A stretch of DNA of 64,000 nt from an uncultured Hyphomicrobiales bacterium (GCA_964634885.1 CAZWLN010000011.1:7216-71215); one strand, 5' to 3'; shown: positions 38,309 to 62,484, counted from the first letter of the stretch. The notes: generated from the sequence alone by a model not told the origin. Numbers and translations: made by a program.

Positions 38309-38336
38309 CTGCTGTAGAACAGAGTACAATACAGTA

Positions 38337-38369: not shown

Positions 38370-38418
38370 CGCTAAGCAGCATTTTTACTACCTGGCCTCG
38401 CCTCGGGGAAGGGCAGTC

Positions 38419-38805
38419 AAGTTCATCAAGTTTATCAAGTTTATCAAGTTTGTAAAGAAAGAAGAAAGAATCCTGCTGCTTCTTTCTCCTTCCCCTTGGG
38501 GAAGGCCGGGATGGGGTTTCTCAGTTAGTAAAGTATGTAAAGAATGCTGAATTCTGAATTCTGAATGCTGAGCCGAGCGCAGCCCATTAAGAGTGCCGAC
38601 TATCCGGTAATATTGCCCCTCAGGGGCATTTTCCTCTTTCAATAGCCACTTCATTTATGGCGTGGGCAAAAAATGAAAGAAACAATCTGCTCCTTTTCGA
38701 GTGGTTCAAGATGGACTCCACCTGCGAGGTGGAGTCCATCTCGCAGATTGCCGGCTTTCTTTCTCCTTCCCCTCTGGGGAATAATTCCCCTGGGGAATAA
38801 TTCCC
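38419..38805. repeat. Composite repeat cluster A (9-bp and 7-bp tandem repeats, REP-like hairpins, two-hairpin MITE-like unit)
   Basis: (AAGTTTATC)n at 38419-38457; ttctttctccttccccttggggaaggccgggatgggg at 38480-38516; (TGAATTC)n at ~38543-38571; unit 38641-38746 with a 15-bp perfect stem; modules shared with 55665-56004 and 62301-62484. Confidence 0.85.
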
Positions 38806-38844
38806 TAACAAAGGAATGTCAACACACAAACAGGCCTGCAATAC

Positions 38845-40008
38845 CTATTTACTTTCTGTTGCTTTCACCGGCAGCGTAAAGCTGAACTTTGTCCCTGCCC
38901 CAGGGGCGCTCTCTACCCATATTCTGCCGCCGTGCCTGTCAACGAACTCCTTACACAGTATCAGCCCCAAGCCGGTGCCTTTCTCGTTGTTGGTGCCAAT
39001 CCTTGTAAATACCGAATCGATCCTGAACAGCTTGTCGATATCCGACTGGGGCATTCCTACGCCTGTGTCGGAAACTGAGACCAGGATGAGGTCCTTTGAG
39101 TCCGGGTCGGGCAGGGCAGCAATTGTAATCTTTCCTCCTTCGGGTGTAAACTTGATGGCGTTGGAAACCAGGTTACGCAGAATTGTGTAAACCATGTTGC
39201 TGTCGTAACAGGCAGTCAGGTCTTCATCCACATCAATCTCCAGTGCAATCTTCTTGGCGGCGGCGTTGCCACGAAGCAGGCCTATGGAGTCGGTAATATC
39301 CACTATGATATTGAATTCCTTTGGATTGAACTCCAGTACTCCTCTTTGGAAACGTCCCCATTCCAGCAGTTCCTCGAGGAATTTATACTGGCTGATGAGC
39401 GATTCATACAAAGAGCTGACATATTCGAACACCTCACTGTCGCTGAGGTTCTCATAGTCCTTGACCACAACCTCGGCAATGCCGAGCAGGCTGGAAAACG
39501 GGCTTTTCATGTCGTGGGCAATAATCGAAAGGAATTTGTCCTTGTCCTTGTTCAGCTTGATCAGGTCGGCGTTCTGTGTCTCAATAATTTTCTTGGTGTG
39601 GCTCAGTTCGAGGTGGTTAACCACACGTGCCACAAGTTCCTGGTGGTTGAACGGTTTGGTAATGTAATCCACTCCGCCGACTTCAAAACCTTTGATGATG
39701 TCTTCCTTCTCGTTCAATGCCGTCAGGAATATTACGGGTATATCCTTTGTTTCATCCGATTCCTTAAGTATCCTGCACACTTCGAAACCATCGATTCGGG
39801 GCATTTGTATGTCGAGCAGTATCAGGTCCGGTTTACGTGCCCTGGCAATCTCGATCGCCTGCATGCCGTTGTTGGCGAGAGCAACGTTGAAACCGTTGTG
39901 TTTCAGGGTTGTACCGAGTACCTGAAGATTCTGGGAGATGTCGTCCACAACAAGTACCCTGGAATTCTTGATGATGGTTTCTTTAATTTCTGCATTATTA
40001 GGTTCCAT
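38845..40008 (-). CDS. Hybrid response regulator/histidine kinase (REC-HisKA-HATPase)
   Basis: VVDD, LLDIQMP, YITKPF, AHDMKSP, SNAIKFT, GTGLGL. Confidence 0.93.
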   Translation of the reverse strand: MEPNNAEIKETIIKNSRVLVVDDISQNLQVLGTTLKHNGFNVALANNGMQAIEIARARKPDLILLDIQMPRIDGFEVCRILKESDETKDIPVIFLTALNEKEDIIKGFEVGGVDYITKPFNHQELVARVVNHLELSHTKKIIETQNADLIKLNKDKDKFLSIIAHDMKSPFSSLLGIAEVVVKDYENLSDSEVFEYVSSLYESLISQYKFLEELLEWGRFQRGVLEFNPKEFNIIVDITDSIGLLRGNAAAKKIALEIDVDEDLTACYDSNMVYTILRNLVSNAIKFTPEGGKITIAALPDPDSKDLILVSVSDTGVGMPQSDIDKLFRIDSVFTRIGTNNEKGTGLGLILCKEFVDRHGGRIWVESAPGAGTKFSFTLPVKATESK

Positions 40009-40016
40009 GGCAGCTT

Positions 40017-43000
40017 CTATTCGAGTAATGCAACAAATTCATTAAGTATTAAATTAATATTGTCAAAATTGAATGTCTCACATTCGATATACAGGCGGTT
40101 TGAGTATTCCATCAGCTTCTCGGAATTGCTTTCTTCTGCGATATGCATTATTTCGCCGGCAAATGTTTCAATCTCGTCGATGAACATCGACTGCCTCAAC
40201 TCCTCAGATCTTTCAAGCCACTTCTCCCTGAGCATCATCTTCAAATCTTCGGCAATGGGAGCGCTTTCTTCGATGGACTCCGTTTCAGTTTCAGCTTCAG
40301 GCCCCGGCGCAGACAGATCATTGAAAGCGATGTGCCTCGCAATCTCGGCAATCAGCAACTGCCTCGAAACGGGTTTGATCAGGAAGCCGTCGCAAAGGCT
40401 TTGTATGTCCTTCTCCTTGGTACCAAGCACAGATGCTGTTAATGCAACGACGGGAATGGAGCTGTATTCCTTACTTTGTTTCAAAATGCCTGTTGCTTCC
40501 CAGCCGTCCATTACCGGCATCTGCATATCCATCAGAATCAGTTCGGGACGGATGTTTTCGATTTGCCTCAAAGCATCCCTGCCGTTTTCTGCCTCGATAA
40601 TGTTCAGGTTCGACGCTTCGAGGAATCCTTTCAGGACAGTCCTGTTCGAGGGTATATCTTCGACGATGAGCAGCGTTTTACCCTTGAAATCGAGTTTCAA
40701 TTCCCTGCTTTCGACCATAGGGACATAGGACGCAGGGTCGGCAATTTCTACATCATATAGATATATCTTGAAATTGGACCCTTTGCCGACTTCACTCTCT
40801 ACGGCGATATTGCCGTTCATCATTTCAGTAAGCCTTTTGGTAATCGTCAGTCCCAGGCCTGTACCGCCATACTTACGGGTGTTCTGGCCTTCCTGCTGCC
40901 TGAAAGCTTCGAATATCAGGTTCTGCTGATCGGGGGGGATGCCTTTGCCTGTGTCTGTTACCTCGAATACCAGGTCAACGGCACCGGAGCCGTCCTGGTT
41001 TCCGATATTCCTGATGGAGATGGTAATGCTGCCTTCATCGGTAAACTTAATGGCGTTGCCGACAAGGTTAAGAAGGACCTGGCGCATACGTGCACCGTCC
41101 ATTCGTACGGTTTGTGGCACATCCTTTCTAATGTCAATATCAAATGTCAGTCCTTTCTCTTTGATTTTCAGCCCGAATATCTGCTGCATTTCCTGGCACA
41201 GTTCAGAGAGGTTGACCGTTTCGAGACGAAGCTCGAGCCTGCCGGACTCAATCTTCGACAGGTCGAGAATATCATTAATGAGAGTCAGCAGGTTCTCTCC
41301 GCCGATTCTTATGCCCTGCAGGTATTCCCTGTAAACCGGATCGGGGATGTGTTCCATCAGCAGTTCCGAGAAGCCGAGAATAGCATTCATCGGAGTCCTG
41401 ATCTCATGGCTCATATTGGCTAAGAATTCGGACTTTGCTTTGTTCGCAGTGTCGGCCATTACTTTTGCCCTGCGCAGGAACTCTTCCTGCTGTGAGCGTT
41501 TGATCGAGGCGGCAATGGCGCCGGCAAACATCCTGTAAATGGATATATATGTTTCGGACATTATATATTCAATATTGCAGTCATTAAAGCCGATGATACC
41601 CCAAAATTCATTGTCTATGAAGATGGGCAGGACAATGACGGAGTTAAGGCCGTGTTTCAGCAGCATATTTTCCAGTTTCCTGTTGGCTGACAGATTGCCT
41701 ATGCTTCCGTAGAGTACCGTATCCTGCTTCAATTCGTCGAAGAAAGAAAAGCAGAGGCCCGACGGGATCCTGTCGGATGCTGTGTTGGCGTCGCCGCTGC
41801 TGTTTGAAAGTGTGGAACAGAAAATTTTCGGGGAAGAGTCTTCACTCTCATTTGACTTTTTATTCTCATAAACATAGGAGCAATCGGCGCCGATTGTCCT
41901 GCTGACAACAGACAACGCTTCAGACAGGGATTCGTTGATTTCACTTTTAATCAGCAGAAGGTTACCGGCGTTGGCAACAGCGCTGAGGAGTTTGTCTTTG
42001 TGTTCCAGCTCTTCCTCGGTTTTCTTTCGTACAGTAATCTCATTCTGCAATTCCCAGCTTTTCCATTCCATTTCATTAGCATACTGCTGGATTTTCTTCT
42101 GGTTCATGATTCTGTCGGAGATGTCCCTGTTAATTCCTCTGTACCCCCTCAGAACGCCGGCTTCGTCGATGATGGGGCTGCCGTTTGTTTCAATGAACCT
42201 TTCTTTCCCCGACGAGTCGATCATCCTGCTCTCGTACGAGTTGATCCACTGCTGGTATTTCTTCGAACTGTTCAGGTACTCCCCAACACGGAAAGCTTCC
42301 TGGGCAGCCATGAAATCGAAAGGCTTCCTGCCAAGTACTTCTTCGGCGTCATAGCCCAGAATGTCAGACACCTGTGGGCTGGAATAGACATAGATATCAT
42401 CGCTGTCGATCTCCCATACCCATTCATTAATATTTTCAACTAAGGACCTGTACTTCGACACGCTCTGCCTCACAGCGTCGATGAAGTTCTTTCTTTCGGT
42501 AATATCCTGTGCGATGCCGGCAATTCTGGCAATATCGTGAGACTCGCTGTAAATGGGGAACATTCTGACCCACAGCCACCGGATCTCCCTGTCCGGCTTG
42601 ACGATGCGAATTTCGTCGTCGAACAGGCCGTCGCGGAGGAAGGACTGGGAGTTGAGCTTCCTGAATACTTTGGGTTTGTCCTTCCTGTAAATGAAATTGA
42701 AGATGCTGCTGTTGTTTTCGTACAGGTCATCTATGTTGTGCCCGACAATTTTCGTGAAGGACGGATTGATGTACAGTATCTTATCCTTCGTCATCAGCCA
42801 GAAAATCTCATCTACGTTCTCTGCAAGTTGCCTGAATCTTTCCTCGCTGTCCCTGATGGCTTCTTCGGCTTCTTTCTTTTCGGTAATATCCTTGCAGAAA
42901 ATCAGGTATTCATCGTCTGAGATACGTGTTGCTTCAGAAGATACATAGACCGAGGATTTGTCTTTCCTGATCAGGTAATACTCCGCCTTAGCGCTGCCGG

Positions 43001-43739
43001 TACTGATTAAGGCCTGGAAATGCTCTATTCCCAGGTATCTTGTACCGTCATAGAGAAGTGTCTCGAAGTCCTTGGCTTCCAGTTCAGCCTTGTCATAGCC
43101 TGTCAGTATTGAGGCCGCCCTGTTAACGAGCCTGAAACGCCCGCTTTTGTCGATTATGAATATGGCGTCGAGAGCGTTTTCGATATATGACCTTAGCTTT
43201 TCTTCACTGTTCCTGAGCTTACTTTCGATTATCTTTCTGTGGGTAATGTCTCTTTCAATTCCCATGATGCCGACGATGTCCCCGGTATAATCCCTGATGG
43301 GTGTTTTGTATTTCTCTACCCAGATGTAGCCGTACTGGCTGTCGAGCGCTTCTTCGATGAGGATGTCAACGCCGTTGTTCATTATCTGGATCTCTTCTTC
43401 CCGGTATTTTTGTGCAATAACATAATCACAGAGGTCCCTGTCGGTTTTACCGACAATATTCTCCGGGGCCTGGTCGTAGAAATCGCAGTAGGATTTATTA
43501 ACAGCTACATATCTGCCGTTTTTGTCCTTGACCCAGGCAATGAAAGGGAGGAAAGAAAGCAGCCTTGCCGTGTTGGAAGGGTCCAGATCGGCTTGTCCTT
43601 TCGGCTGGGGAAAACCCCTTGCCGAAGCCTGTAGATCAGCTGTAGCCTTCAGTTCTTCCAATTTCCGAAAGACAAGGTCCCTGTCGGTACTGCCGTCTTT
43701 CAGCAATTCAATGACCTCATCTATTCGGGCTTCTATCAT
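40017..43739 (-). CDS. Multi-PAS/GAF hybrid histidine kinase with receiver
   Basis: Four PAS-PAC repeats, GAF-like segment, ANMSHEIRTP, GGTGLGL, LMDMQMP. Start at MIEARID preferred. Confidence 0.92.
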   Translation of the reverse strand: MIEARIDEVIELLKDGSTDRDLVFRKLEELKATADLQASARGFPQPKGQADLDPSNTARLLSFLPFIAWVKDKNGRYVAVNKSYCDFYDQAPENIVGKTDRDLCDYVIAQKYREEEIQIMNNGVDILIEEALDSQYGYIWVEKYKTPIRDYTGDIVGIMGIERDITHRKIIESKLRNSEEKLRSYIENALDAIFIIDKSGRFRLVNRAASILTGYDKAELEAKDFETLLYDGTRYLGIEHFQALISTGSAKAEYYLIRKDKSSVYVSSEATRISDDEYLIFCKDITEKKEAEEAIRDSEERFRQLAENVDEIFWLMTKDKILYINPSFTKIVGHNIDDLYENNSSIFNFIYRKDKPKVFRKLNSQSFLRDGLFDDEIRIVKPDREIRWLWVRMFPIYSESHDIARIAGIAQDITERKNFIDAVRQSVSKYRSLVENINEWVWEIDSDDIYVYSSPQVSDILGYDAEEVLGRKPFDFMAAQEAFRVGEYLNSSKKYQQWINSYESRMIDSSGKERFIETNGSPIIDEAGVLRGYRGINRDISDRIMNQKKIQQYANEMEWKSWELQNEITVRKKTEEELEHKDKLLSAVANAGNLLLIKSEINESLSEALSVVSRTIGADCSYVYENKKSNESEDSSPKIFCSTLSNSSGDANTASDRIPSGLCFSFFDELKQDTVLYGSIGNLSANRKLENMLLKHGLNSVIVLPIFIDNEFWGIIGFNDCNIEYIMSETYISIYRMFAGAIAASIKRSQQEEFLRRAKVMADTANKAKSEFLANMSHEIRTPMNAILGFSELLMEHIPDPVYREYLQGIRIGGENLLTLINDILDLSKIESGRLELRLETVNLSELCQEMQQIFGLKIKEKGLTFDIDIRKDVPQTVRMDGARMRQVLLNLVGNAIKFTDEGSITISIRNIGNQDGSGAVDLVFEVTDTGKGIPPDQQNLIFEAFRQQEGQNTRKYGGTGLGLTITKRLTEMMNGNIAVESEVGKGSNFKIYLYDVEIADPASYVPMVESRELKLDFKGKTLLIVEDIPSNRTVLKGFLEASNLNIIEAENGRDALRQIENIRPELILMDMQMPVMDGWEATGILKQSKEYSSIPVVALTASVLGTKEKDIQSLCDGFLIKPVSRQLLIAEIARHIAFNDLSAPGPEAETETESIEESAPIAEDLKMMLREKWLERSEELRQSMFIDEIETFAGEIMHIAEESNSEKLMEYSNRLYIECETFNFDNINLILNEFVALLE

Positions 43740-44026
43740 TAACTCTCCGAAAAAAAACAAAAGCGGCTCTTGAAACCAAGCCTTCTATTATCTCCCACTA
43801 TTAGATTATCTGAGTTTCAAATATATTAATCTATTTCAAATAACCCACATTACTTTTCATACAAATATCGGTTTTGATATTGTAATCTTAATACTCATCA
43901 ACATAATGCCAAAATTAATAATAAATTTATATAAGTGCCGATAATATTTATTGGTATAGTTTTTTCTTAACATATATCGATGGTAATAATTTACCATGAG
44001 TAATGTTCAATATTATTGAAAATTAG

Positions 44027-46954: not shown

Positions 46955-47119
46955 TAACTGTCGGTTCTTTCATGTTATAAATATTTTGCATGCGCCTGTT
47001 ATAATATAATTATTACTTATGCGTTTATATTTTTTTTACATTAATGGGGCACTATCGTAAGAAGTTCTACATAGTATTTTAGCTTTAGTATGTTGTTTTA
47101 TTATTATGCTGAGGTATCT

Positions 47120-48517
47120 ATGTTCACTAAGCAAATTGCCGGAATAGCACTATTCCTTTTGATCAGCAGCGCTTCCCTTTTTAGCGCCGGTTTGAAAGAC
47201 ATTATCAACCAGGCAGACTACCTGATTATTACTACCGAAGCTTTCAGGGATGGAACAGAAGAACTTGCTTCCTGGAGGAGGAACGAAGGGTTTACCGTCA
47301 GAACAGTAACAATACCTGAAATACAAGCCGATTTTCCCAACGAACAACTTTCCGGTTCAATTCGCGAGTTTATCAGCTACACACTTACATACTGGACTCA
47401 GCCCAAACCCCGCTATATACTTCTTGCGGGCGGCGTTGCCATTGTACCGCCCTTCAGGGTAGCCGGCGAATTCGACGAAGACAGTGTCAGTGTCGATGGT
47501 TATTATGCAATCAACCTGAACCAGGACGACATGGACCAGGATGTATCTCTCGGCAGGCTCCCTTTCAAGGACGGTACCGAACTGGCAAACATGATCGGGA
47601 AAATCAAAACATTTGAAAATCCTGAGAATAAGGATCGATACAAAACCGACTTCTTTATTACTGCCGACAGTGGTGATTACGGCTATTTGGAACAATTTGC
47701 CGAAAAACTGGCTGAAGAAACAATACCTTCATACCTTCGCGTGGACAGGCTCTATCTTGCCCAGGGTACACAGTACTCGGGCACAAAGGCGGACTATATC
47801 AACAAACTGAACGACGGCACATATTATTTAATAAATATATTTCACGCTAATCCGAGAGTGTGGGCAAGAGGAATGTTGCTGTCATCAGCGGAAATCAACC
47901 CCGGCAATATCCATGGCGCCCCGGCTATTAACCTCATGATCGGCTGTTCGCAGGATTTTGACAGTATTCAAGCCCCATCGATAATCGAGAAAATGATGAG
48001 CCTTGAAAACAGTGGCCTTGTAGCAAGCTACGCTTCGGTAGGAATGAATTATGCTCAAATAGCATATAAGAGGATTCAGGATTTTCTGAAAAGCGCTATC
48101 TATGGTGCTGAATTAAGGATTGGCGACGTCATAGCGACATGCCCGAAAGAAACCAACATTCAAGAAGCGAAATATTTACTCAGGTTAACCCTGCTTGGCG
48201 ATCCGGCCATGAAACTGCCGCAATGGGCAAAAGCGCCGGTCGAAGACGACAACAGCGCTGCCGGGGATATTGCCCTGGACCTTTCACCTAACCCATTCAG
48301 CGAATTTGTTAATGTGAAAATCGCAATCGGTTCTGAGAACCGGGTCCTGCTTGAGCTCTACGACCTGCTGGGGAACCGTATTGCAGAGTTGAACAATTCT
48401 GTCCTGCAGCCGGGCAACTACAGTTTCCCCTGGCACAGCAACGGCAGCGGAGCAGTGATATGCAGGCTGACTGCGGGCAACAGCGTCGTCTCTAAGATGG
48501 TTGTTTGTATAAGATAG
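47120..48517 (+). CDS. Peptidase C25 (gingipain-like) with T9SS CTD, paralog 1
   Basis: DYLIIT, PRYILLAGG, VSLGRLP, His (FHAN) and Cys (IGCS), TLLGDPAM, PNPFS CTD. Confidence 0.88.
   Translation: MFTKQIAGIALFLLISSASLFSAGLKDIINQADYLIITTEAFRDGTEELASWRRNEGFTVRTVTIPEIQADFPNEQLSGSIREFISYTLTYWTQPKPRYILLAGGVAIVPPFRVAGEFDEDSVSVDGYYAINLNQDDMDQDVSLGRLPFKDGTELANMIGKIKTFENPENKDRYKTDFFITADSGDYGYLEQFAEKLAEETIPSYLRVDRLYLAQGTQYSGTKADYINKLNDGTYYLINIFHANPRVWARGMLLSSAEINPGNIHGAPAINLMIGCSQDFDSIQAPSIIEKMMSLENSGLVASYASVGMNYAQIAYKRIQDFLKSAIYGAELRIGDVIATCPKETNIQEAKYLLRLTLLGDPAMKLPQWAKAPVEDDNSAAGDIALDLSPNPFSEFVNVKIAIGSENRVLLELYDLLGNRIAELNNSVLQPGNYSFPWHSNGSGAVICRLTAGNSVVSKMVVCIR
48236..48484 (+). repeat. Near-identical CTD-coding direct repeat, copy 1
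   Basis: Matches 49820-50068 with 3 mismatches; 48296-48484 is identical to 49880-50068 (189 bp). Confidence 0.92.
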
Positions 48518-48706
48518 CTTTTCGTTTCCAGAATGACTTAACAAAGACAATAAAAGACCAACGGAACAATTGTTCGTTTTGCCTGGGGAAAAAAAAGAAT
48601 TATTATCACTTTTACCTTTTTACATTCCCGGGCTGGTTTATCGGGTATTGTTCTACATAATTGTTCAGCTTTAGTATGTTTTTAAATTATTATGGCAGAG
48701 GTATGT

Positions 48707-50101
48707 ATGTCTCTCAGAAAGATCACCTGTATATTACTATTCCTTATATCTTTTAGTACATCGGTCTGTTATGCAAACCTCAAGGATACGAACAACCAGG
48801 CAGATTACCTTATCATTACAACGGAAGAGTACAGCAATCAGATGGAAGAACTTGCCTCCTGGAGGAAAAACGAAGGATTCACTGTCAAAACGGTTACTAT
48901 ACCTGAAATACAGGAAAACTTTCCCGACGAACAGCTCTCAATGTCAATTCGCAAATTCATCAGCCATACACTTACATACTGGCAGAAACCTGTTCCCCGC
49001 TATATCCTTCTCGCCGGAGGTATTCCATTGATACCGTCAATATTGGATTATAGCTATGTTGATAAGGACAGCATCAGCATCGACGGCTATTATGCAATCA
49101 ATATAAATGAAAATGATGTCATTCCGGACATAGCAATCGGCAGGTTGCCATTCAGGGACGGAGCAGAACTTGCAAACATGATCAGTAAAATTAAAACATT
49201 TGAAACTATTGATTTTGAAAAAGCTTACAAAAAGGATTTCCAGATTACCGTTGACAGTGCCGGCTTCGAAAATTTTAAATACTATTCTGATGATTTGATA
49301 AAAAATATAATTCCTTCACACCTACGTGTTGACACATTGTATTTAATACCGGGTACTCAATGTTCCGGCGAAAAGCAGGATTTCATCGATAAAATAAACT
49401 ATGGCGTTGTCTATTTGGCTAACTTTTTCCATGGGAATCCGGGAGTGTGGGGAATGAAAACAGTGCTTACTTCTGCTGATATTAACAGTGGGGCCATTCA
49501 CGGACCACCTTCTATAAATGTAGCTCTATCCTGCAGCCAGCGATACGACGACATCCATACCCCATCACTTATCGAAAAGTTGATGAGCCTCGGAAACAGC
49601 GGCCTTGTCGCGAGTTACGCTTCGGTTGGATTAATCTATGGCTCCTATTCCTACTTTAATATGGAAGGCTTTTTTATTAATGCACTTAATAGTACTTTCA
49701 CAAGAATTGGAGATGTGGTACTTAAAAGCAAAAAAAACACCGGAGCAGATATTGAATATGCCAAAAGGCACAATCTGCTTGGCGATCCGGCCTTAAAACT
49801 ACCGCAATGGCTTAAAGCACCGGTCGAAGAAGACAACAGCGCTGCCGGGGATATTGCCCTGGACCTTTCACCCAACCCCTTCAGCGAATTTGTTAATGTG
49901 AAAATCGCAATCGGTTCTGAGAACCGGGTCCTGCTTGAGCTCTACGACCTGCTGGGGAACCGTATTGCAGAGTTGAACAATTCTGTCCTGCAGCCGGGCA
50001 ACTACAGTTTCCCCTGGCACAGCAACGGCAGCGGAGCAGTGATATGCAGGCTGACTGCGGGCAACAGCACAGTCTCGAAAATGATTACATGTATTAAATA
50101 G
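48707..50101 (+). CDS. Peptidase C25 (gingipain-like) with T9SS CTD, paralog 2
   Basis: DYLIIT, PRYILLAGG, IAIGRLP, FHGN, LSCS, HNLLGDPAL. Confidence 0.88.
   Translation: MSLRKITCILLFLISFSTSVCYANLKDTNNQADYLIITTEEYSNQMEELASWRKNEGFTVKTVTIPEIQENFPDEQLSMSIRKFISHTLTYWQKPVPRYILLAGGIPLIPSILDYSYVDKDSISIDGYYAININENDVIPDIAIGRLPFRDGAELANMISKIKTFETIDFEKAYKKDFQITVDSAGFENFKYYSDDLIKNIIPSHLRVDTLYLIPGTQCSGEKQDFIDKINYGVVYLANFFHGNPGVWGMKTVLTSADINSGAIHGPPSINVALSCSQRYDDIHTPSLIEKLMSLGNSGLVASYASVGLIYGSYSYFNMEGFFINALNSTFTRIGDVVLKSKKNTGADIEYAKRHNLLGDPALKLPQWLKAPVEEDNSAAGDIALDLSPNPFSEFVNVKIAIGSENRVLLELYDLLGNRIAELNNSVLQPGNYSFPWHSNGSGAVICRLTAGNSTVSKMITCIK
49820..50068 (+). repeat. Near-identical CTD-coding direct repeat, copy 2
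   Basis: Offset 1584 bp from copy 1. Confidence 0.92.
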
Positions 50102-50116
50102 AAAAAATCGAGCGGC

Positions 50117-50581
50117 TCAGCTCAACTCGCTGTAAGCGGGGACATCAGGCGAGATGGAGAATGACTTTGACACCCTGTCAATCTTTATGAAATAATGGAC
50201 GAGGCCGTTTGTAATTATGAGGTTGTCAACATTGAGCTTCAGGTTGTATGTCCCGATCTGCTGGAGGGTTTTCTGTGACAGTTCGACACTGTGGGCTTTA
50301 CATTCAACAACAGCCAGGGGATTGAAGTCTTTGCCATAGACAACGATGTCGCACCTCTTTGCAAGCCCGTTTACCGTCAGTGAGGCTTCGAGCCTGATAC
50401 GTGTCATGGGGCAGGCTTTTTCTTCGACGAGGTACCTGGCGAAGTTCTGCCTCACCCACTCCTCCGGTGTCAGTTTTACATATTTCTTACGGAAGCTGTC
50501 GTAGATGGAAGCGTCGCTGTTGTACAGCCTGACAGGGAATTCATACTGCGGGAGGTTAAGTTGTGGAAGTTCGAGGCTCAT
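50117..50581 (-). CDS. Stand-alone HsdR N-terminal-like (HSDR_N_2) domain protein
   Basis: YDSFRKKYVKLTPEEWVRQ, RCDIVVY, VVECKA, TNGL. Confidence 0.88.
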   Translation of the reverse strand: MSLELPQLNLPQYEFPVRLYNSDASIYDSFRKKYVKLTPEEWVRQNFARYLVEEKACPMTRIRLEASLTVNGLAKRCDIVVYGKDFNPLAVVECKAHSVELSQKTLQQIGTYNLKLNVDNLIITNGLVHYFIKIDRVSKSFSISPDVPAYSELS

Positions 50582-50587
50582 GACGGT

Positions 50588-50917
50588 TTACTTTGCTAAT
50601 TTTGGATTGTCTTTATGGCGGCGGCTGTCGCGTTCGGTCTTCTTTACTAAGTTTTTCCGCAGCGCTTCAGTCAGGTCAACTCCTGTCTGGTTGGCAAGGC
50701 AGATGAGAACGAAGAGTACGTCGGCGTATTCATCCGCCAGTTCTTTCGTAGTGTCGGCAGCCTTGAAAGACTGTTCCCCGAAACGGCGGGCGATGATGCG
50801 GGCAACTTCGCCCACTTCCTCGGCAAGCAGCGCCATGTTCGTCAACTCGGAGAAATACCTCACCCCGTGGTCTTTAATCCATCTGTCAACCGTTTCCTGT
50901 GCTTCCTTTATCGTCAT
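50588..50917 (-). CDS. MazG-like nucleotide pyrophosphohydrolase (YpjD type)
   Basis: YFSELTNMALLAEEVGEVAR, ELADEYADVLFV. Confidence 0.92.
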   Translation of the reverse strand: MTIKEAQETVDRWIKDHGVRYFSELTNMALLAEEVGEVARIIARRFGEQSFKAADTTKELADEYADVLFVLICLANQTGVDLTEALRKNLVKKTERDSRRHKDNPKLAK

Positions 50918-51164
50918 AAGAACCCATTATTTCAATATTATCAATTTATACAATTATTAGTAGAAGTAAATGACGGTAAGTAATTGCTAAACGGAAATAT
51001 TTTCTCAAAAATTTTCACCAATTATATCACTTTCTGTCAATGAAAGATAAATCTTTTCCGATAATATACGTATTAGATAAAATTATCTGATAATATTTCG
51101 GAATTATCGGTGTAATTATATTATGTATTTTTTGTAAAACATTGACATTTGTGAGGAGTCGAAC

Positions 51165-55466: not shown

Positions 55467-55547
55467 GCTGCTAAGCGGCTGCAACCGGAGAGTTCGTTAC
55501 GGTTGCCGGCAAATAGTAGTACAGGAAATTATATAAAGCCAAAAGTT

Positions 55548-55598
55548 CAGGCCCGGCGGTATTCAACCAGGATACCTGCCGGGCTTGTTTTATTATTT
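55548..55598 (+). terminator. Probable terminator after the S8 gene
   Basis: caggcccggc-ggtat...atacc-t-gccgggcttg followed by ttttattattt. Confidence 0.65.
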
Positions 55599-55664
55599 GC
55601 TGACAGTAGTGGACGATGAAGCAATTGTAAGATCGCTGTGTATCGCTCAATCAGGCTTTGTCCA

Positions 55665-56004
55665 GGGGGGATTATTCCCCAGGGGGAAGGGGCAAGAACG
55701 CCAGGCTCTTCAAGTCCTCCCCAATGGGGAGGATTTAGGTGGGGTTGTACCTTCGAATGGTGAACAACTGGTTTGCTGCAAGATGGACTCCACCTCTGAG
55801 GTGGAGTCCATCCCGACACTCCCGGAACGGAGAAGATTGTTTCTTTTCGTTATCATTCCTATCCACGCCATAAATGACGTGGCTATTTAGTGGGGAAGAA
55901 GCCTCTAAGTTTCAGCTTCTTCTTACTTTATAAACTTGATGAACTTTATAAACTTGATGAACTAATAAACCCCATCCCGGCCTTGCTGTAGGGGTAAGAA
56001 AGAG
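55665..56004. repeat. Composite repeat cluster B (largely the reverse complement of modules in clusters A and C)
   Basis: 55665-55746 matches 62382-62462; 55776-55888 matches 38641-38746; 18-bp tandem (CTTTATAAACTTGATGAA)x2 at 55926-55961; aaaccccatcccggcctt at 55967. Confidence 0.85.
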
Positions 56005-56038
56005 GTGAGCGTCCTGCCGGTCCTCTTTAGCTGTCCTA

Positions 56039-58249
56039 TTACCTTTCCAGGACAATTTTACTGAAGGTGATTTTGTCGTCGGTCCGAAACCGGCAGAAAT
56101 ATACGCCCGAAGGAAGGCCTGCCGTATTCCAGTACGACTTTCGAACACCCGGAGTAAACCAACTGTTTTCAAGAGCGCTGACTTCAATGCCCATAGAATT
56201 GAATATTTTCAATTCAATATGGCAGAATTGACTTGTAGCGTGTTCTATGGTAATGATTCCGTTGCCCGGATTCGGATAGCATTTTACATGCGCATTATAA
56301 TAATCATGGTTCTCATCGACTACATTGCTGTCATACACATATCCGAATACTTCCAACTCATGGATCTTATATCCGCTTTGTTTCTTACTTTTCAGGAACA
56401 ATACCCTTACAAAACGCCCTTTGCTGTCGAGATAGTAATGATGGCCAACGAAAGCGTGAGAGCTGTCGGTCTCATAAATGGTTTCCCAATTGGCCGAATC
56501 CGTCGAAACCTGGATTTTGTAAGAAACCGGGAAATTATTGTCCCAGTTCATTTTTACATGCTCTATTATATATACAGATTCAAGATCTATGCAAACCCAC
56601 TGTGTATCGCTTTCGCTGCTCATCCAATATGTGGAATAGTCCGAATCGACAAGCGAATCTCCTATGGCAGGCGAACCAGGTACCATCGTCGAGGTGGACA
56701 CCTTTTTCCTGAATGCTATGTTATTAGGGATGGGATTTTCAGGCAAAACAAATCCCGGCACCATGCCAACCTTCTTTATGGAAGCCAGGAAGCTTTCATA
56801 GGTCGAATCCGGTTTGGCCGATCCCCAATTGACCTGGGAAGAGACCCTGAGTGAATTATTTATCCCGTATGCAATCTGGTCCTCTGTTTCAAAATCCCCC
56901 CAGTCGCACCATATTTGCAATTTGCTGCCAAGTATCATTGTGGTATCATCTTTGATCCTTTTGTCTCCCTGAAAAACCGAGGGATTCCATTCTGTGTAAA
57001 TTTGCTTGTTCGGCGGCCAACAACGATAGACAGCGCTGTAATAAAGAAAATTCATGTTACTGTTGATCAGTTTGTGCCCCATATCAATCAGCTCCTCCGG
57101 CTGAATGTCACAATACCAGTGTTCCAGTATGATGTCGCTGTTCAGTCGAATTGTTGACCTGGACAAATCATCGCCGTGATAGCAGTCACTCCATGCCCTC
57201 ATTGTTTTGCCGTGGCTTTTGACGACACTGTCCACCATATTAATGAAACCGAAGAAGGCGTCCAACTGGCAGGCTTTTTCACCGTATTGTTTCCGGGCAT
57301 ATCGCCTGAGCTGAGGATATAAAGTGGAATCGGCAAAGAACTCGTCAGCGCCGCAATGCCAGTATGGGCCGGTAAACAACGGAAGGTATTCATTCAGGAG
57401 TGTAACGATGAATCTCAACGATTTCTCCTTAGTGAAATCAATTCTTGGGCTTCCGGTGCCGCTCGTGTCTGTTAAACGATAGCTCGAGTCGAGCCGGGAA
57501 AGAATATGTTCCATATGGTCAGGCATATCAATCTCAGGAATGATTGTAACAAAATACCTGTCTGCCAGTTCCTATAATGACTTAATCTCGGACTTTTTCA
57601 GGTATTTATCAGATTGGATGGCAGGGTAGCTGTCGCATTGGAGCCTGAATCCCTGATGATCGGAGAGATGCCAGTGGAAAAGATTCATTTTCAGGTAGGC
57701 CAGCTCTTTGATGTGCTCTTCAAGCCACTCGACAGTGAAGTATTTCCTGCCGTTGTCAACCATAAGCCCACGCTCGGAATACCTGGGCCAGTCCCTTGCC
57801 ACGCCGCAGCCGACGGTGTCGCCTTGTTTCAACAACTGGAGCAGTGTCCTTGTACCGTAGAATACACCTGCTTTGTAAGGAGAGCCTATCGTGATATGGT
57901 CACCGATTCGCATTGTGTATCCTTCTTTGCCGGGATTGTTACCTGTAAAGCTTAAAGACAAATAAATGTCGCCTGTTTCCGGCTGGCTACCGGTGATTAC
58001 ACTCACATGGCAGCCCCGGAGAACGTATATGTCTTCCCTGAGAGTTCGGGCAACCGGTGTGAGAGCTTCAGAATACTGAGGATCGACAACAATCCTGCTG
58101 TTTGAACTGAAGATGAAACAGCCCTCTCCGTCGGACCATTCCTGCAACGCGGGAATCGTCAACGGCTTCCGGGCAACTGAAATACCTGATTGTAGTATAA
58201 ATAAAGAAAGCGCTATTACAATTAATCCTGCAATACTGATCTTTGACAT
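56039..58249 (-). pseudogene. GH20 beta-N-acetylhexosaminidase/lacto-N-biosidase-like enzyme with F5/8-type C domain and T9SS CTD, interrupted by one in-frame TAG (57572-57574)
   Basis: The two ORFs are in frame; read-through gives EIKSL*ELADRYFVTIIPEIDMPDH. Also ERGLMVDNGRKYF, NLFHWHLSD, catalytic CGADE, CIDLE/YKIQVS discoidin, PNPGN CTD. Confidence 0.85.
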
Positions 58250-58467
58250 ACTTACTCCACCGGATAACAACTACTCAACCAAGCCCGTAACAGCATATCA
58301 TAGTGAACAATTATTTTATGCTGATTCATACAATGTTACATCTTAACCAGAATGTACACTATATAGGTAAATCATAGAATATTTCTTAATTTGCAAGAAC
58401 GAATGTATTGAATACTTATTTTTTGTTCTTTTTTAGATTTTTTTTATTGGATATTGGCACAAGAGGC

Positions 58468-59163
58468 ATGACAGAACAGGTTAAACAGATGTTTTCGAGA
58501 ATAGCACCCCGCTACGACAGGATGAACACCATCCTCTCCTTCGGCATTCATTACCTCTGGAGGAAGAAGGCTGTGCGTTTGTCAGGAGTCAGGGAAGGCG
58601 ACAGTGTTCTCGATTGTGCAACAGGTACGGGAGACCTGGCTTTCGAATTCAGCAGGAAAACCGGCCCCGGCGGATCGGTTACCGCCATCGATTTCAGTGG
58701 CGGGATGATTGCCTTAGCCAGGGAGAAACTTGAGAAAAAAGGCGGCAATATAGATTTTTCCGAAGGCGACGTATTGCAGCTCGGCTTTCCTGACGGCGCT
58801 TTCGACTGCTCGAGCATATCCTTCGGAATCAGGAATGTGGACTCACCGCTGGCAGGCCTCTCTGAAATGGCCAGAGTCGTTAAGCCGGGAGGAAAAGTCA
58901 TCGTCATTGAATTCGGTCAGCCGAAGGGCTTGCTTTCGCTGCCCTACAAGTTCTACGCCCGGTTTGTAATGCCACTTCTCGGCAGGCTTTTCGCCGGCGA
59001 TAAAGACGCATACACCTATCTCCCCGTTACTGCTTCTAAGTTCCCCTGCCGCAACGATTTCATTTCAATCATGGAACAGACCGGACGGCTTACTGACTGC
59101 CGCTTCTATTCACTATCTTCAGGAATTGCATTTATATATGCCGGAATTGTAAAACAACGATAA
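58468..59163 (+). CDS. ubiE: Demethylmenaquinone/ubiquinone methyltransferase
   Basis: MFSRIAPRYDRMN..LSFG.H.LW, VLDCATGTGD, SFGIRNV, YTYLP. Start at MTEQVK after AGAGG. Confidence 0.93.
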   Translation: MTEQVKQMFSRIAPRYDRMNTILSFGIHYLWRKKAVRLSGVREGDSVLDCATGTGDLAFEFSRKTGPGGSVTAIDFSGGMIALAREKLEKKGGNIDFSEGDVLQLGFPDGAFDCSSISFGIRNVDSPLAGLSEMARVVKPGGKVIVIEFGQPKGLLSLPYKFYARFVMPLLGRLFAGDKDAYTYLPVTASKFPCRNDFISIMEQTGRLTDCRFYSLSSGIAFIYAGIVKQR

Positions 59164-59258
59164 AAATATTTAATATTATTTTGAATTATTAACAATGTTT
59201 ACTATTTTAGCAATGTTAATATATTTAATATTATTATAAATTATCGAAAGGCATTAGT

Positions 59259-60497
59259 ATGAATGAACAACCGGCTGTGCAGACAGCAGTTGAACTTGGA
59301 CTGATGGTCGGTTTTCCGGTCCCACAGGACAAGCTTGTAACACACTCAAACCAGTTATACGGCCCGTTCAACCGGTGGAGTTTCCTGAATGAGCTGAAAC
59401 TGAACCGAACTTCTGATGTTTGGAGAGGCAGCGGCAAAGTGGCCGAATTTGATTACGACCTGCAGGAGCTTGGCGAAGTCAGATACAAGAACTTCCTGGG
59501 AGCAGAATTTTCTTTCAATGACATGATCAGGCAGAGCTATACCGATGGTATTATTGTTCTTCACAAAGGCAGGGTCGTGTTTGAACAATACCTCAACGGC
59601 ATGGAGCCTCACACACTTCACGCATGGGCTTCGTGCAGCAAGGCTGTTGTCGGGACTTTGGCTGCCGGCGCAGTTAGCGAAGGACTGATCAACCCCGATG
59701 AACCAATCGTCACATACCTGCCTGAACTCAGAGGCAGCGGATTCGGAGATGCCTCTGTACTCCATGCAATGGACATGACTACAGCTGTCGGCTTCGCTCA
59801 ACCCGACACCGATCCCGTCTCGGAAAACGTACCATACAGCATTGCCATGGGCTGGCGGGCAATGCCTCCGGATTACACCGGCCCCCGTTCGGCCTGTGAA
59901 TTCCTGCCGACTATGGTCAAAACCGGCGAACACGGTGAACGCTTTACATACCAGACTCCAAACTGCGACATACTCGCATGGATATTGAAACGAATATACA
60001 ACAAAAGCCTATCCGCCATCATGCAGGAAAAACTATGGTCAAAACTCGGCGCAGAACGCGACGCCTTCTGGATTGTCGATCCTTCGACTTCTGAGACATC
60101 GGGATCGGGGTTGATCACTACACTAAGAGATATGGCGCGTTTCGGACAAATGTTGATTCAAAACGGCAGGTTTAACGGCATGCAGATACTATCGGGCGCT
60201 GCCGTCGAAGACATTGAAGCCGGAGCGGACAAGGAAGCATTTGCACGAAGCGCGGCAGCAGGCCCCTCCAACATAGGCTATTCCTATCACCACCAGTGGT
60301 GGAACACGCACGATGGACTTGGCGCTTACTATGCACTGGGCTACGGCGGCCAGATACTATATATTGCACCGGCAGCAGAGATGGTAGTAGCAAAGTTCAG
60401 TTCTTACCCCACACCAACACCGGCGGGCAATGAATTCTACGCCGCGCTTGGGGCAATACCGGCGCTGGGCAGGCGACTGATGGAGAAGAACAGCTAA
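59259..60497 (+). CDS. Serine hydrolase, beta-lactamase class C family (NylB/6-aminohexanoate-dimer hydrolase-like)
   Basis: SxxK (ASCSK), FTYQT, LRDMARFG, ALGYGGQ. Confidence 0.85.
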   Translation: MNEQPAVQTAVELGLMVGFPVPQDKLVTHSNQLYGPFNRWSFLNELKLNRTSDVWRGSGKVAEFDYDLQELGEVRYKNFLGAEFSFNDMIRQSYTDGIIVLHKGRVVFEQYLNGMEPHTLHAWASCSKAVVGTLAAGAVSEGLINPDEPIVTYLPELRGSGFGDASVLHAMDMTTAVGFAQPDTDPVSENVPYSIAMGWRAMPPDYTGPRSACEFLPTMVKTGEHGERFTYQTPNCDILAWILKRIYNKSLSAIMQEKLWSKLGAERDAFWIVDPSTSETSGSGLITTLRDMARFGQMLIQNGRFNGMQILSGAAVEDIEAGADKEAFARSAAAGPSNIGYSYHHQWWNTHDGLGAYYALGYGGQILYIAPAAEMVVAKFSSYPTPTPAGNEFYAALGAIPALGRRLMEKNS

Positions 60498-60573
60498 GAG
60501 CTGCCTTTCTGTTGCGTTGCCATTTTCCATTATTGGGACAGGCAACAACATTGGTTAACCGGATCGATGCACA

Positions 60574-61854
60574 TCAGAAGGCCGCAATCAGCCTGAGACC
60601 GAACAGCAGGGCATCATCTCCCGTATCCGAATTGCACGGATCGATAACATACTGGAAGTCAGGCTGGAGAGCAAGTGCAGGAGTAAGGTAATACTTATAT
60701 GTAAGCTCAAATATATGCTCAAAAGGTAACACGGTCCGGCCTTCAGTTTTCGCGGTTTCCCTGTATTGTCCGGAATTGTGTGCGGAAGCAAAACTCACCC
60801 CTAACTCATCCGGACATGATTCCTGGAAGACACCTCTGTAAACCAGCCCTCCGCCAAAATAAAAGTCAAACTGGTTAACCTTGGCGTCTGCTACACCTGC
60901 TCTTGCAACAAGGGACAGGCCGTTACAATTATCAAAACTTGACAGAAACAGGTCCTGTTCGAAAATCAGGTATAAGCCCTGGTTGTAAATGCCTGAAACA
61001 ATATGGCTGTAACTGTCCGTATAATGCCAGTAGCCAAGTGCCAGTTTCGTGTAGGGTTCATTTTTATGTTTTTCATTGCCGGGCAGCGCACATGTTTTGT
61101 TTCCTTTAGTGAAACCGGCTTCGACAGCAGTCAACAGGCCGTCATTGTCATTGAACACTATATGAGTACCGTTCGGACGGTTAGGATCGCCGGCGACACC
61201 GTCCAGGGCGCTGAGTTGAATATAAGTATTATCAACAGGAGAATACCTGATCCGCAACCCGAAAGAAGCAGTGGGAAAAATCGAAGGGCCGTTCTCTCCG
61301 GACTGGGACCAGTCAACACCGATGCCGTGCGATGGGTTGATGAACAACTGGTTTACAACTTTGCAGTCGAACTGGGAATTCAGGTCATACATACCGACAA
61401 GCATGTTCAAACGGTTGTTGAAAAATGATGTTTCCAAATAAAGCTGGAATATTTTCCATGTATTATAAGCGGCGATATTAGAGATACCCTGTCCGGCACC
61501 TGCATAGTCCGCGATGTTCTTACCGTTGTTACCAAGGACATGAATGAACAGATTTGTATTGTCAACACCAACCAGGTTTTCCAGTTCGAACAGTCCTGTC
61601 AGGTCTATGTTATCGGTATAACAGGATTCAGACCTGCCGTTAACCGCCGAACCCCACACTTCGCCTTTATACATTGCGTCGATCGTAATTCCTGCGGTTT
61701 CCAGGCTATTTCTGAATCCGCCCCAATCGCCGGTGAGGCGCTCCCGGTTAAGTATGCCCGAATCGTCCTGAATTGCATCTTCCGAATAGGCTGGAGTAAG
61801 GAACATAGTAAATGTGATCAGAATTATATTCAGTATTGCCGCTGCCTTTGCCAT
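60574..61854 (-). CDS. OprB-family carbohydrate-selective porin
   Basis: LTGDWGGFR, FINPSHG, GPSIFP, ELTYKY, LQPDFQYVIDP, terminal Phe. Confidence 0.9.
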   Translation of the reverse strand: MAKAAAILNIILITFTMFLTPAYSEDAIQDDSGILNRERLTGDWGGFRNSLETAGITIDAMYKGEVWGSAVNGRSESCYTDNIDLTGLFELENLVGVDNTNLFIHVLGNNGKNIADYAGAGQGISNIAAYNTWKIFQLYLETSFFNNRLNMLVGMYDLNSQFDCKVVNQLFINPSHGIGVDWSQSGENGPSIFPTASFGLRIRYSPVDNTYIQLSALDGVAGDPNRPNGTHIVFNDNDGLLTAVEAGFTKGNKTCALPGNEKHKNEPYTKLALGYWHYTDSYSHIVSGIYNQGLYLIFEQDLFLSSFDNCNGLSLVARAGVADAKVNQFDFYFGGGLVYRGVFQESCPDELGVSFASAHNSGQYRETAKTEGRTVLPFEHIFELTYKYYLTPALALQPDFQYVIDPCNSDTGDDALLFGLRLIAAF

Positions 61855-62300
61855 ACATACACCTTCTTTTACCTTTACTTTCCTGTCATCCTTGCCGTTA
61901 ACAATTATTCCCTTAATAGAATTTTCGGCTGAATTACTATGTTTCTTTAATAGAAAACAGTTGTCCGTTTACTGTCTGAATAGAGACAGGCCTTCAGGTT
62001 TTCGTTTCCTAATATCCGGTTTCATATCAATTCATTAATCAAAAACATTTTACAATTTTCAATTTACCGGTAACAAAATTAGCAATATTTAGGCATATAT
62101 AAAAATTAATTTAGGTATGTATAAATTTGAATCAATATATTTACTCGTTTTTGTTGACACAAGAATCAGGAGGTATTACCGGTAATTAAATACCGGATAG
62201 TCTGTTAAAATTATGTAAATAAAGGCTCTTCGCTATTCAGTGTGGGGAACATTATATTGATAATGATGACAGTAAAGAGACTGTAATATCAATAGATTTC

Positions 62301-62328
62301 GTAGAGACGCAAGGCCTTGCGTCTTTAC
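62301..62328. repeat. GTAG-type REP palindrome
   Basis: GTAGAGACGCAAGG-CCTTGCGTCTTTAC: 5' GTAG plus a near-perfect palindrome with one mismatch. Confidence 0.75.
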
Positions 62329-62381
62329 TGGTGCGGCTTTCCAGTGTCCGGGATAAGGTATTTGTGCACTCTGTGTGTGTT

Positions 62382-62484
62382 AACCCACCTAAATCCTCCC
62401 CAAAGGGAGGACTTCAAGAACTGCCTTGTTTCTTTCTCCTTCCCCTTGGGGAATAATTCCCCAAGGGAAGGTCGGGATGGGGTT
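62382..62484. repeat. Composite repeat cluster C (REP-like hairpins)
   Basis: aacccacctaaatcctccccaaagggaggacttcaaga and ttctttctccttccccttggggaataattccccaagggaaggtcgggatgggg, shared with clusters A and B. Confidence 0.85.

Follow-up and report, generated by a model that had tools for sequence, protein, structure and literature searches.

The intergenic repeat arrays described here came to light in a stretch of 64,000 nucleotides (the window, G000:C11:7216-71215) of a draft genome, G000, which comprises 5.09 Mb in 109 contigs with 45% GC and 98% completeness. Three clusters of short palindromic modules, referred to as A, B and C, lie in the window. An earlier note on this DNA had described them as assembled from one shuffled set of modules, and all of the modules it named were recovered at or near the places it gave them (Table 1). 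A and B are situated between convergent open reading frames (ORFs), as the note had also said, and C between the divergent genes for OprB (-) and Hsp33 (+). Array A follows a CheA-like gene, and the position of the terminator of this gene upstream of the array places array A outside that transcription unit. The best relatives of the CheA-like protein are found in Candidatus Kapaibacterium/Kapabacteria and Ignavibacteria-type metagenome-assembled genomes (closest 78% amino acid identity), and genes neighbouring the arrays carry sorting domains of the type IX secretion system, which fits a Kapabacteria-like placement of the genome.

The three arrays are part of a genome-wide population made up of some 15 short modules, hairpins as well as tandem repeats, which belong to several unrelated small non-coding element families. 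When A, B and C were compared with the whole genome by BLAST, more than 1,300 high-scoring segment pairs were returned, and the per-base coverage gave sharp module boundaries. Modules were recovered by greedy extension of frequent 13-mers, with seed counts summed over both strands; nhmmer profiles proved unreliable for these short modules, and k-mer unitigs and blastn-short were used instead. Annotation with a library of 20 modules gave about 1,700 copies in 494 arrays, so that the modules are not confined to the three loci, and 15-mers found five or more times cover 121 kb (2.4%) of the genome.

Module families and the anatomy of the arrays

Table 1. Positions of the arrays, their modules and the adjoining terminator, counted from the first letter of the window
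Feature	Position	Strand	Description and basis
Intrinsic terminator of CheA-like gene	38336..38375	+	13-bp stem, then T-run; gene at 36185-38308, CheA domains
Array A, polarity +	38401..38805	+	Order: degenerate M1 right half, T9, S1 hairpin, M1, short T9, heptamers, truncated X1, M4, M3, truncated/duplicated M1p; module matches, alignment, folding
T9 nonamer tandem, array A	38417..38457	+	(AAGTTYATC)n, ending in GTAAAGAAAGAAGAA; Tandem Repeats Finder (TRF), k-mer unitigs
S1 hairpin, array A	38455..38488	+	AGAAAGAAG ... CTTCTTTCT; purine-rich T9 tail and pyrimidine-rich M1 head, loop variable among copies
M1, array A	38480..38517	+	TTCTTTCT head, CCTTCCCC-TT-GGGGAAGG hairpin, CCGGGATGGGGT G-run tail
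Heptamer tandem, array A	38542..38584	+	(GAATKCT)n, leading into truncated X1 (GAGCCGAGCGCAGCC); TRF, unitigs
Small hairpin, then M4, array A	38614..38667	+	GCCCC-TCA-GGGGC-TTTT, then AATAG-CCACTTCAT-TT-ATGGCGTGG-GC; stem analysis
M3, array A	38708..38741	.	Long near-perfect hairpin AAGATGGACTCCACCT-GCG-AGGTGGAGTCCATCT
M1p, array A	38756..38805	+	M1 head and two tandem TTCCCCTGGGGAATAA cores, without G-run tail
Array B, polarity -	55664..56003	-	Order (minus strand): degenerate M1, T9, M4, M3, inverted M2, truncated M1p; collinear with array A
M2, array B	55707..55745	+	TCTTCAAG-TCCTCCCC-AAT-GGGGAGGA-TTTAGGTGGGGT
M3 hairpin, array B	55780..55812	.	
M4 hairpin, array B	55863..55887	-	
T9 nonamer tandem, array B	55925..55963	-	TRF
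Element C	62224..62534	+	Complete composite miniature element of 311 nt; family alignment, at least 30 members
Left terminal inverted repeat of C	62224..62250	+	GGCTCTTCGCTATTCAGTGTGGGGAA
REP1 in C	62301..62328	.	GTAG-tagged palindrome GTAG-AGACGCAAG-GC-CTTGCGTCT-TTAC
M2 in C	62383..62419	-	Inverted relative to the M1p after it
M1p in C	62430..62483	+	M1 with internally extended palindrome (CCTTCCCCTTGGGGAAT/AATTCCCCAAGGGAAGG) and TCGGGATGGGGT tail
Right terminal inverted repeat of C (module X6)	62509..62534	-	...TACCCACTACAAATAGCGAAAAACC

The modules differ in kind. M1, M1p, M2 and M6 are hairpins that have one C-rich and one G-rich arm and bear a G-run tail, while REP1, REP2 and M4 are GTAG- or ATAG-tagged hairpins resembling repetitive extragenic palindromic (REP) sequences. 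T9 and the heptamers are strand-fixed tandem repeats of 9 and 7 nt, and M3 is a single long hairpin. Seed counts were 135 for M1 (TTCTTTCTCCTTCCCCTTGGGGAAGGCCGGGATGGGGT), 147 for T9, (AAGTTYATC)n, and 117, 118 and 166 for the heptamers (CTGAATT)n, (GTAATTC)n and (TGGTGGC)n, respectively. X1, a block embedded in heptamer arrays, had 98 seeds, M3 had 116 with every copy counted on both strands, and REP1, REP2 and M6 had 89, 70 and 87; the same extension also recovers M2, M4 and hybrids of M1 and M2. REP1 (GTAGAGACGCAAGGCCTTGCGTCTCTAC, about 50-60 copies) and REP2 (TGTAGAGACAGGTCTCAGACCTGTCTC, about 70 copies) both consist of a GTAG tag followed by a GC-rich imperfect palindrome with a 9-bp stem. 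The core of M1 is present in 141 copies at no more than three mismatches, 42 of them perfect and 42 with one mismatch. Across the genome, TRF returned 199 rows of nonamer and 184 rows of heptamer tandems, overlapping rows counted. Heptamer arrays of (TGGTGGC)n and related G-rich units were observed at 27 or more loci, with up to about 45 copies; their units cannot keep a reading frame, and they always share the strand of the other modules. A search of positions 36000-64000 against Rfam gave no gathering-level match, and hits within the arrays were at chance level alone.

In the window, a k-mer mask of the contig bounds the three clusters at 38416-38806, 55671-55984 and 62224-62529, and TRF places nonamer tandems at 38417-38451 and 55925-55963 and heptamers at 38542-38571. 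The head of M1, TTTCTCCTTCCCCTTGGGGAA, occurs four times against 0.00 expected from 100 shuffles. As single-stranded DNA, array A is predicted to fold with -76.3 kcal/mol (z = -5.9 against shuffled controls); folding and stem analysis both bear out the hairpins. When array A was aligned end to end with the reverse complement of array B, the two were collinear at 71% column identity, which indicates composite copies that differ by module insertions or deletions. The backbone common to both consists of M1, T9, the small GCCCC hairpin, M4, a spacer, M3 and a tail-less M1p; array A has in addition a leading T9 and the heptamer/X1 block, and array B has M2. To judge by this alignment, A and B are two inverted, diverged copies of one composite (M1-T9-M4-M3-M1p) and not independent shuffles. 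The difference in module order between A and B that the earlier note had reported therefore arises largely from the (M1-T9)n periodicity.

Transposition of composites, block duplication and probable recombination

The limits that the note had assigned to cluster C, 62301-62484, are real, but they enclose only the interior of an element with terminal inverted repeats (TIRs) that runs from 62224 to 62534. Members of the C family have imperfect TIRs of about 26 bp, GGYTCTTCGCTATT...GGGKAA, and the left ends found number at least 30, the right ends about 25. Perfect target duplications of 8-9 bp (ATAATTTTT, CCAATTATT and GAAAATCT) flank three of seven complete copies, and the window copy has only a degenerate AT-rich match at that position. 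From these TIRs and target duplications it follows that the C family transposes as a classical TIR-type MITE (a miniature transposable element with inverted repeats), and together they show that what moves is the whole TIR-bounded composite.

The ends of the C family are constant and the interior is not, ranging from 204 to 450 nt or more with zero to three M1/T9 units. An interior of 204 nt consists of a single M2/M1 hybrid, one of 312 nt is REP1-M2-M1p (the window copy), T9 is added in one of 391 nt (REP1-M2-T9-M1), and one of 450 nt reads REP1-M2-M1p-M1p-M1-M1. Longer copies contain (M2-M1-T9)3 or (M1-T9)n. Presence/absence polymorphism of modules, expected on the reading of the earlier note, is thus seen among paralogous copies of one MITE frame. 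A second MITE family, K1, of about 150 nt and with terminal repeats CCCGGATAATGCGTTAG and CTAATGCACAATCCGGG, occupies 40 loci in G000, mostly solo. K1 elements carry an internal M6 hairpin, and an example lies at C11:74016-74156, about 2.8 kb past the end of the window.

Within arrays, the modules share a polarity. The view of the note that they keep their relative orientation is confirmed genome-wide, with uniform polarity in 236 of the 243 arrays that contain two or more oriented families, and in 161 of 167 once fixed composites are removed. Relative orientation (same:opposite) was 192:1 for M1-T9, 170:0 for M6-T9 and 97:0 for M1-M6. M2 always stands head to head with the adjoining M1 or M1p (0:46 and 0:28); this untagged pair looks like the doublet of a REPIN (two REPs that together make a hairpin), and M1 is also found about 100 times without M2. 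The order of modules is regular as well. REP1 is followed by M2, then by M1 or M1p, and then by T9 or the right terminal repeat; M1 and M6 alternate with T9, and heptamers alternate with X1 and lead to M6. M4 is succeeded by M3 in 27 of 33 transitions, usually at the 3' end, and M3 closes arrays more often than any other module (28 of 162). Junctions are less exact: the linker from M1 to the next T9 varies between 5 and 8 nt, and where the head of M1 (TTCTTCTTTCT) pairs with the purine-rich end of the module before it (AAGAAAGAAGAA), the loop varies among copies.

Inside arrays, TRF detected about 70 higher-order tandem repeats, whose periods are 80-220 nt and which have two to six copies of 90-100% identity. 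Multi-module blocks have therefore been duplicated locally and recently, a major process that can be seen directly and that keeps orientation automatically. A further process is indicated by the modules themselves. M2 is a diverged homologue of M1, M1p is M1 with an extended palindrome, and all three have the centre CCCCWWGGGG in common. Hybrid unitigs occur in both combinations, M1-left/M2-right in 48 copies and M2-left/M1-right in 28, and in the 204-nt MITE copy at C8:48575 the join of M2 and M1 falls exactly between CCCCA and TTGGGG. We infer from these hybrids that modules may recombine or template-switch at the hairpin tip.

The interpretation to which we give moderate credence is that these composite, internally polar intergenic arrays are selfish or neutral DNA, with four routes of spread and diversification. 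Whole TIR-bounded composites would transpose, as in the C family, presumably by means of an unseen DDE transposase. Multi-module blocks would duplicate locally in tandem and slip, as the higher-order repeats demonstrate, and modules would recombine or template-switch at CCCCWWGGGG hairpin tips, as the hybrids suggest. Finally, tagged hairpins might be moved strand-specifically as single strands by Y1 transposases of the IS200 family. With blocks rather than single modules being copied, strict polarity would mostly follow. Arrays would pile up at sites that can bear insertions, chiefly between convergent genes and past terminators. In keeping with this, just two arrays overlap the interior of an ORF of more than 300 amino acids, convergent-gene intervals are enriched in arrays, and array A lies past the terminator of the CheA-like gene.

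Y1 transposases and a proposed oriented insertion of single modules

Three genes for Y1 transposases (PF01797) are present in G000. None lies on the window's contig, and to that extent the statement of the note that the window holds no transposase stands, the screen having been limited to the Y1 class. Two of the genes are identical IS200-type tnpA copies of 145 amino acids on contigs C59 (C59:19825-20600; L001) and C3 (C3:146133; L002). The third is a divergent single-copy gene on contig C46 that encodes 160 amino acids (G000:C46:34988-35765; L003, 1180-1960). All three are flanked by ATAG-CCACGAG...CTCGTGG hairpins. Around tnpA on C59, inverted ATAG-CCACGAGCTTCAGCTCGTGG hairpins are set 756 nt apart, and pairs of the CCACGAGCTTCAGCTCGTGG hairpin about 190 nt apart, without tnpA, occur at seven or more loci (about 230 nt; for example C11:86745/86933, just beyond the window). 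Since these pairs are identical to those of the C59 element, they represent non-autonomous IS200 derivatives. Before the C46 gene stand 34-nt AATAG-CCACGAGTTTYAACTCGTGG units in a tandem array, in which a 100-N scaffold gap lies, and one more unit follows the gene. Such a layout appears REPtron-like. The C46 protein scores 66 bits against the IS200 model (cut-off 55) and 28 bits against NF047646, the model for REP-associated tyrosine transposases (RAYTs; cut-off 80), and its best solved relative is ISDra2 TnpA.

Among the modules of the arrays, M4 (AATAG-CCACGYCATWYATGRCGTGG) is similar to the Y1-flanking hairpins in its tag, its stem ends (CCACG...CGTGG) and its stem length, with the design alone in common. 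As to a mobiliser flanked by modules, which the earlier note had proposed to look for, Y1 genes have hairpins of M4 design, and no mobiliser flanked by M1, M2, M6, T9, REP1 or REP2 was found in the assembly. None of the three Y1 genes is flanked by REP1 or REP2 in this draft assembly, from which a RAYT may be missing. The 28 genes bracketed by arrays, which were considered as REPtron candidates, include no transposase; their products are surface or housekeeping proteins, SmpB, TetR and dehydrogenases among them. Likewise, no Y1 transposase was found next to M1 in 80 metagenome loci, where ORF clustering gave spurious ORFs over repeats alone. A contribution of Y1 transposases to the spread of the tagged hairpins is plausible but unproven. 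The note had named restriction of the modules to the three loci, lack of presence/absence polymorphism and lack of a module-flanked mobiliser as grounds for giving up its view; with modules genome-wide, a polymorphic MITE frame and Y1 genes with M4-like hairpins, none of the three appears to apply.

A strict form of the reading in the note would be that each module is a separate non-autonomous element, mobilised as single-stranded DNA by an HUH/Y1 transposase (RAYT- or IS200-like). Insertion would then take place 3' of a target in a resident module and in fixed orientation, and arrays would grow module by module. The near-absolute polarity agrees with this proposal, although arrays occur on either chromosomal strand. 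It would also account for the GTAG tag on REP1 and REP2, the ATAG tag on M4, the three Y1 genes with their cognate hairpins and tnpA-less derivatives, and the distribution that each module has of its own across genomes. In M4, moreover, stems occur as C:G, T:G and T:A variants, with 40 G:T and 0 A:C mismatches on the polarity strand. This asymmetry is uninformative for the palindromic REP1, REP2 and M3, and in M4 it may stem from one inherited state. The hairpins around the Y1 genes are not those of REP1, REP2, M1, M2 or M6, nor are T9 repeats found there, and the C46 protein falls well below the RAYT cut-off. M1, M2 and M6 are untagged. The junctions described above are semi-conserved composites with variable linkers and not precise insertions, and many differences between arrays are duplications of whole blocks. 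Nor is there a lagging-strand or skew bias (166 vs 138). Independent, oriented insertion of single modules side by side was not demonstrated, composite transposition, block duplication and core recombination being found instead, and we regard it as an unlikely origin of the arrays. The replication strand was rejected separately as a cause of polarity, as no link to local GC skew was seen (99+67 vs 75+63) and neighbouring arrays share a strand in just 152 cases versus 98.

Distribution, possible constraint and related systems

The module families are not distributed alike. At three mismatches or fewer, the core of M1 is absent from the same-genus genome and 23 genomes of the same family and is present in G033, a genome of another family of the order, which has hairpin mosaics of its own; among 400 genomes sampled across the phylum, it was found in G033 alone and was missing from 399. 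M3 occurs in two same-family genomes, with 12 copies in G008, where the stem variant CCACTT...AAGTGG replaces CCACCT...AGGTGG in a compensatory manner, and five in G019. T9 is seen in traces alone among relatives, and REP1 and M6 are in none of the five relatives tested. These separate taxonomic distributions indicate that the families have separate histories, as expected of independent elements, and the claim of the note that several distinct families are involved is upheld: among the genomes tested, M1 is found in G000 and G033, M3 in G000, G008 and G019, and REP1 and M6 in G000 alone. The same-genus genome is fragmented and has 65-70% nucleotide identity to G000. At the closest CheA locus (L004, 78% at the amino acid level), synteny is lost right after the gene and no modules are present.

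In metagenomes, a degenerate core, CCTTCCCCNNGGGGAAGGNNGGGATGGGG, was found on at least 120 contigs among the matches listed. These form two groups, one of 40-45% GC with the G033 variant and one of 50-60% GC, human-gut contigs included, with the exact G000 variant. Contigs whose core is base-identical to that of G000 belong to gut and environmental Bacteroidota of 31-70% GC. In every metagenome locus examined, the core is embedded among other hairpin repeats; no other module is common with G000, and none of the loci is from the same organism. A housekeeping ABC-F gene on a contig of the 50-60% GC group (L075) shares 77-79% identity with genes of Bacteroidota genomes without M1. Carriage of M1 by phages was considered and rejected, one viral contig out of 2.9 million having M1. 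On the human-gut contigs L058, L071 and L046, M1 units stand in tandem with a period of about 47 nt, and their neighbours look decayed by G-to-A changes, as in CCACTTGAAGAAGGTTGAAATGG.

This distribution and the sequence of M1 are among the points that weigh against selfish or neutral spread. The M1 core is much better conserved than the adjoining linkers, and this, together with its base identity in distant bacteria, is more suggestive of functional constraint, or of a specific recognition factor, than of neutral junk. Arrays of the A and B type showed neither terminal repeats nor target duplications. For the two TIR-bounded MITE families, no transposase was found between paired TIRs 0.6-4 kb apart that would mark an autonomous insertion sequence in this draft assembly, from which copies may have been lost. 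The protein collection has no proteins at least 90% identical from outside the source sample, and thus no close relatives for a comparison of empty sites at strain level. Between tandem genes, 94 arrays are co-oriented with the upstream gene and 36 are anti-oriented, which hints at a transcription-linked bias; the gene calls behind all counts of array context are crude, being longest ORFs.

These points can be taken further, to arrays as functional cis-elements that are kept by selection, with repetition reflecting convergent maintenance and not mobility. They might serve as bidirectional terminators or insulators, as stabilisers of mRNA 3' ends, as arrays of sites for nucleoid or regulatory proteins, or as hairpin or G-quadruplex switches. 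An enrichment between convergent genes (94 arrays, or 36%, where about 15% of gene intervals are of this kind) is in keeping with such roles, as is the co-orientation of 72% of the arrays in tandem-gene contexts. The strong predicted fold of array A, the invariance of the M1 core amid drifting linkers and the compensatory stem variants of M3 and M4 point in the same direction. The polarity strand is also G-rich (26.4% G vs 20.1% C), and its G-runs are strand-biased, with 431 versus 80 two-tetrad motifs. As for canonical G-quadruplexes, the idea was dropped because just 12 three-tetrad motifs occur across all arrays, leaving at best weak two-tetrad potential. Terminator function sits poorly with hairpins that lack T-runs after them and with the position of array A beyond a canonical terminator; 34 arrays (13%), C included, lie in divergent promoter regions. 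M1 is evidently dispensable, as its absence from the genus and family relatives implies. Moreover, the C family has the TIRs and target duplications of a mobile element, copy number and content vary freely among arrays, and Rfam holds no match. We consider selection for function an improbable general explanation, and a cis-regulatory or protein-binding role nevertheless stays as a rival on the strength of the conservation of M1 and the mild co-orientation with upstream genes.

A narrower idea concerns M1 itself. Its hairpin, CCTTCCCC-NN-GGGGAAGG followed by NN-GGGATGGGG, might be a discrete element recognised by a horizontally travelling or widely conserved trans-acting factor and not junk of one lineage. 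The identity of M1 in distant Bacteroidota, its absence in the congener and its constant place in strand-polar mosaics speak for this idea, which we put forward as doubtful. Were it true, strict polarity would reflect a strand-specific mechanism at the level of single strands or RNA, of a kind not yet described for REP-like elements.

That the arrays are artefacts of assembly or binning (collapsed or chimeric repeats in a draft metagenome-derived genome) is very improbable: 83 of the 494 arrays reach contig ends, several 100-N gaps fall within arrays, and short-read Logan contigs end inside A and C, but independent JGI contigs of sample 3300022666 span array B (L045) and element C (L042) fully at 99.98% identity without gaps, unique genes flank arrays on more than 100 contigs, and module grammar and structure are coherent. 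The Logan breaks are as expected for repeats. Array repeats are a main cause of fragmentation in this genome, and in practical terms they break short-read assemblies of this lineage.

Two observations concern other sequences. Outside the window, at G000:C9:111493-119580, there are two large CRISPR-like arrays with a 30-nt repeat, ATTTCAATTCTACAATAGTGCGATTAAAAC, in about 120 copies, which provides the most frequent long k-mers in the genome. In the window, tandem paralogous ORFs of about 470 amino acids lie at 47090-48517 and 48692-50101, downstream of an ORF of 975 amino acids. Their last 300 nt are 96% identical and the remainder 73-77%, which suggests recent gene conversion of the 3' ends.

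Several known systems invite comparison. Bacterial interspersed mosaic elements (BIMEs) of enterobacteria are built from REP or palindromic unit (PU) sequences, regularly spaced and in alternating orientation (Nunvar et al., 2010; PMC2817692). Like them, the present arrays are high-copy intergenic mosaics of short palindromes and other motifs, often at gene 3' ends, in a genome that also has HUH/Y1 transposases. Unlike in BIMEs, the modules are co-oriented, the families are far more numerous, micro- and minisatellite blocks are integral, and no RAYT flanked by the abundant modules was found. The term BIME-like, as used in the earlier note, suits high-copy, extragenic and palindromic elements, but not the alternation of REP orientation, since inversion is confined to the M2/M1 pair. 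BOX elements of Streptococcus pneumoniae and S. suis are modular MITEs of the form boxA-(boxB)n-boxC (Croucher et al., 2011; PMC3049150). The C family is likewise a polar composite with TIRs, target duplications, ends that stay the same and an internal tandem of varying copy number (left end, REP1-M2-(M1-T9)n, right end), so that its members differ widely in size. It differs in its unrelated sequences, in that its internal modules also make up hundreds of free arrays such as A and B, and in having several recombining internal families. For REPINs and RAYTs (Bertels and Rainey, 2011; PMC3116915) and for GTAG-tagged REPs with TIRYT/TIRtron elements (Di Nocera et al., 2013; PMC3733652), the likeness lies in the GTAG tag and 9-bp stem of REP1 and REP2 and, possibly, in the inverted M2/M1 doublet. 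As in TIRtrons and REPtrons, the Y1 genes are flanked by hairpins, inverted in the IS200 copies and in tandem on C46. Unlike REPtrons, the C46 Y1 scores as IS200 and not as RAYT, its ATAG-CCACG hairpins are related to M4 alone, and the GTAG REPs are without a cognate gene in the assembly.

In cyanobacteria, Elhai and colleagues reportedly described, in 2008, heptamer tandem repeats (short tandemly repeated repetitive sequences, STRR) and small dispersed repeats (SDR). By analogy only, these may be likened to the present arrays as intergenic heptamer tandems mixed, and often nested, with tiny dispersed hairpins that have no known mobiliser; the phylum is another one and the sequences are unrelated. 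A further parallel is offered by Correia elements and by Neisseria intergenic mosaic elements (NIMEs), which consist of RS units separated by dRS3, a phage integration and recombination site. There too, heterogeneous short modules are punctuated by a recurrent short repeat, at which recombination shuffles them; no comparable integrase link is seen here. The array system works in the manner of BIMEs, BOX elements and NIMEs, and its polarity, its grammar and the occurrence of M1 across lineages are unusual.

Mosaic intergenic repeats of the BIME, BOX, NIME and REPIN kinds have been studied closely in a few model bacteria and are essentially undescribed in the Kapabacteria/Bacteroidota lineage; a literature search for these modules, by sequence too, found no paper describing them. 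The present genome is an extreme and orderly case, with about 490 arrays, strict polarity, a module grammar, integral tandem micro-repeats, hybrid modules and MITEs with module cargo. It offers a natural system for learning how small repeats build mosaics, by block copying or by oriented insertion. M1, identical yet patchy across distant bacteria, points to a recognisable partner, be it a mobiliser or a binding factor.

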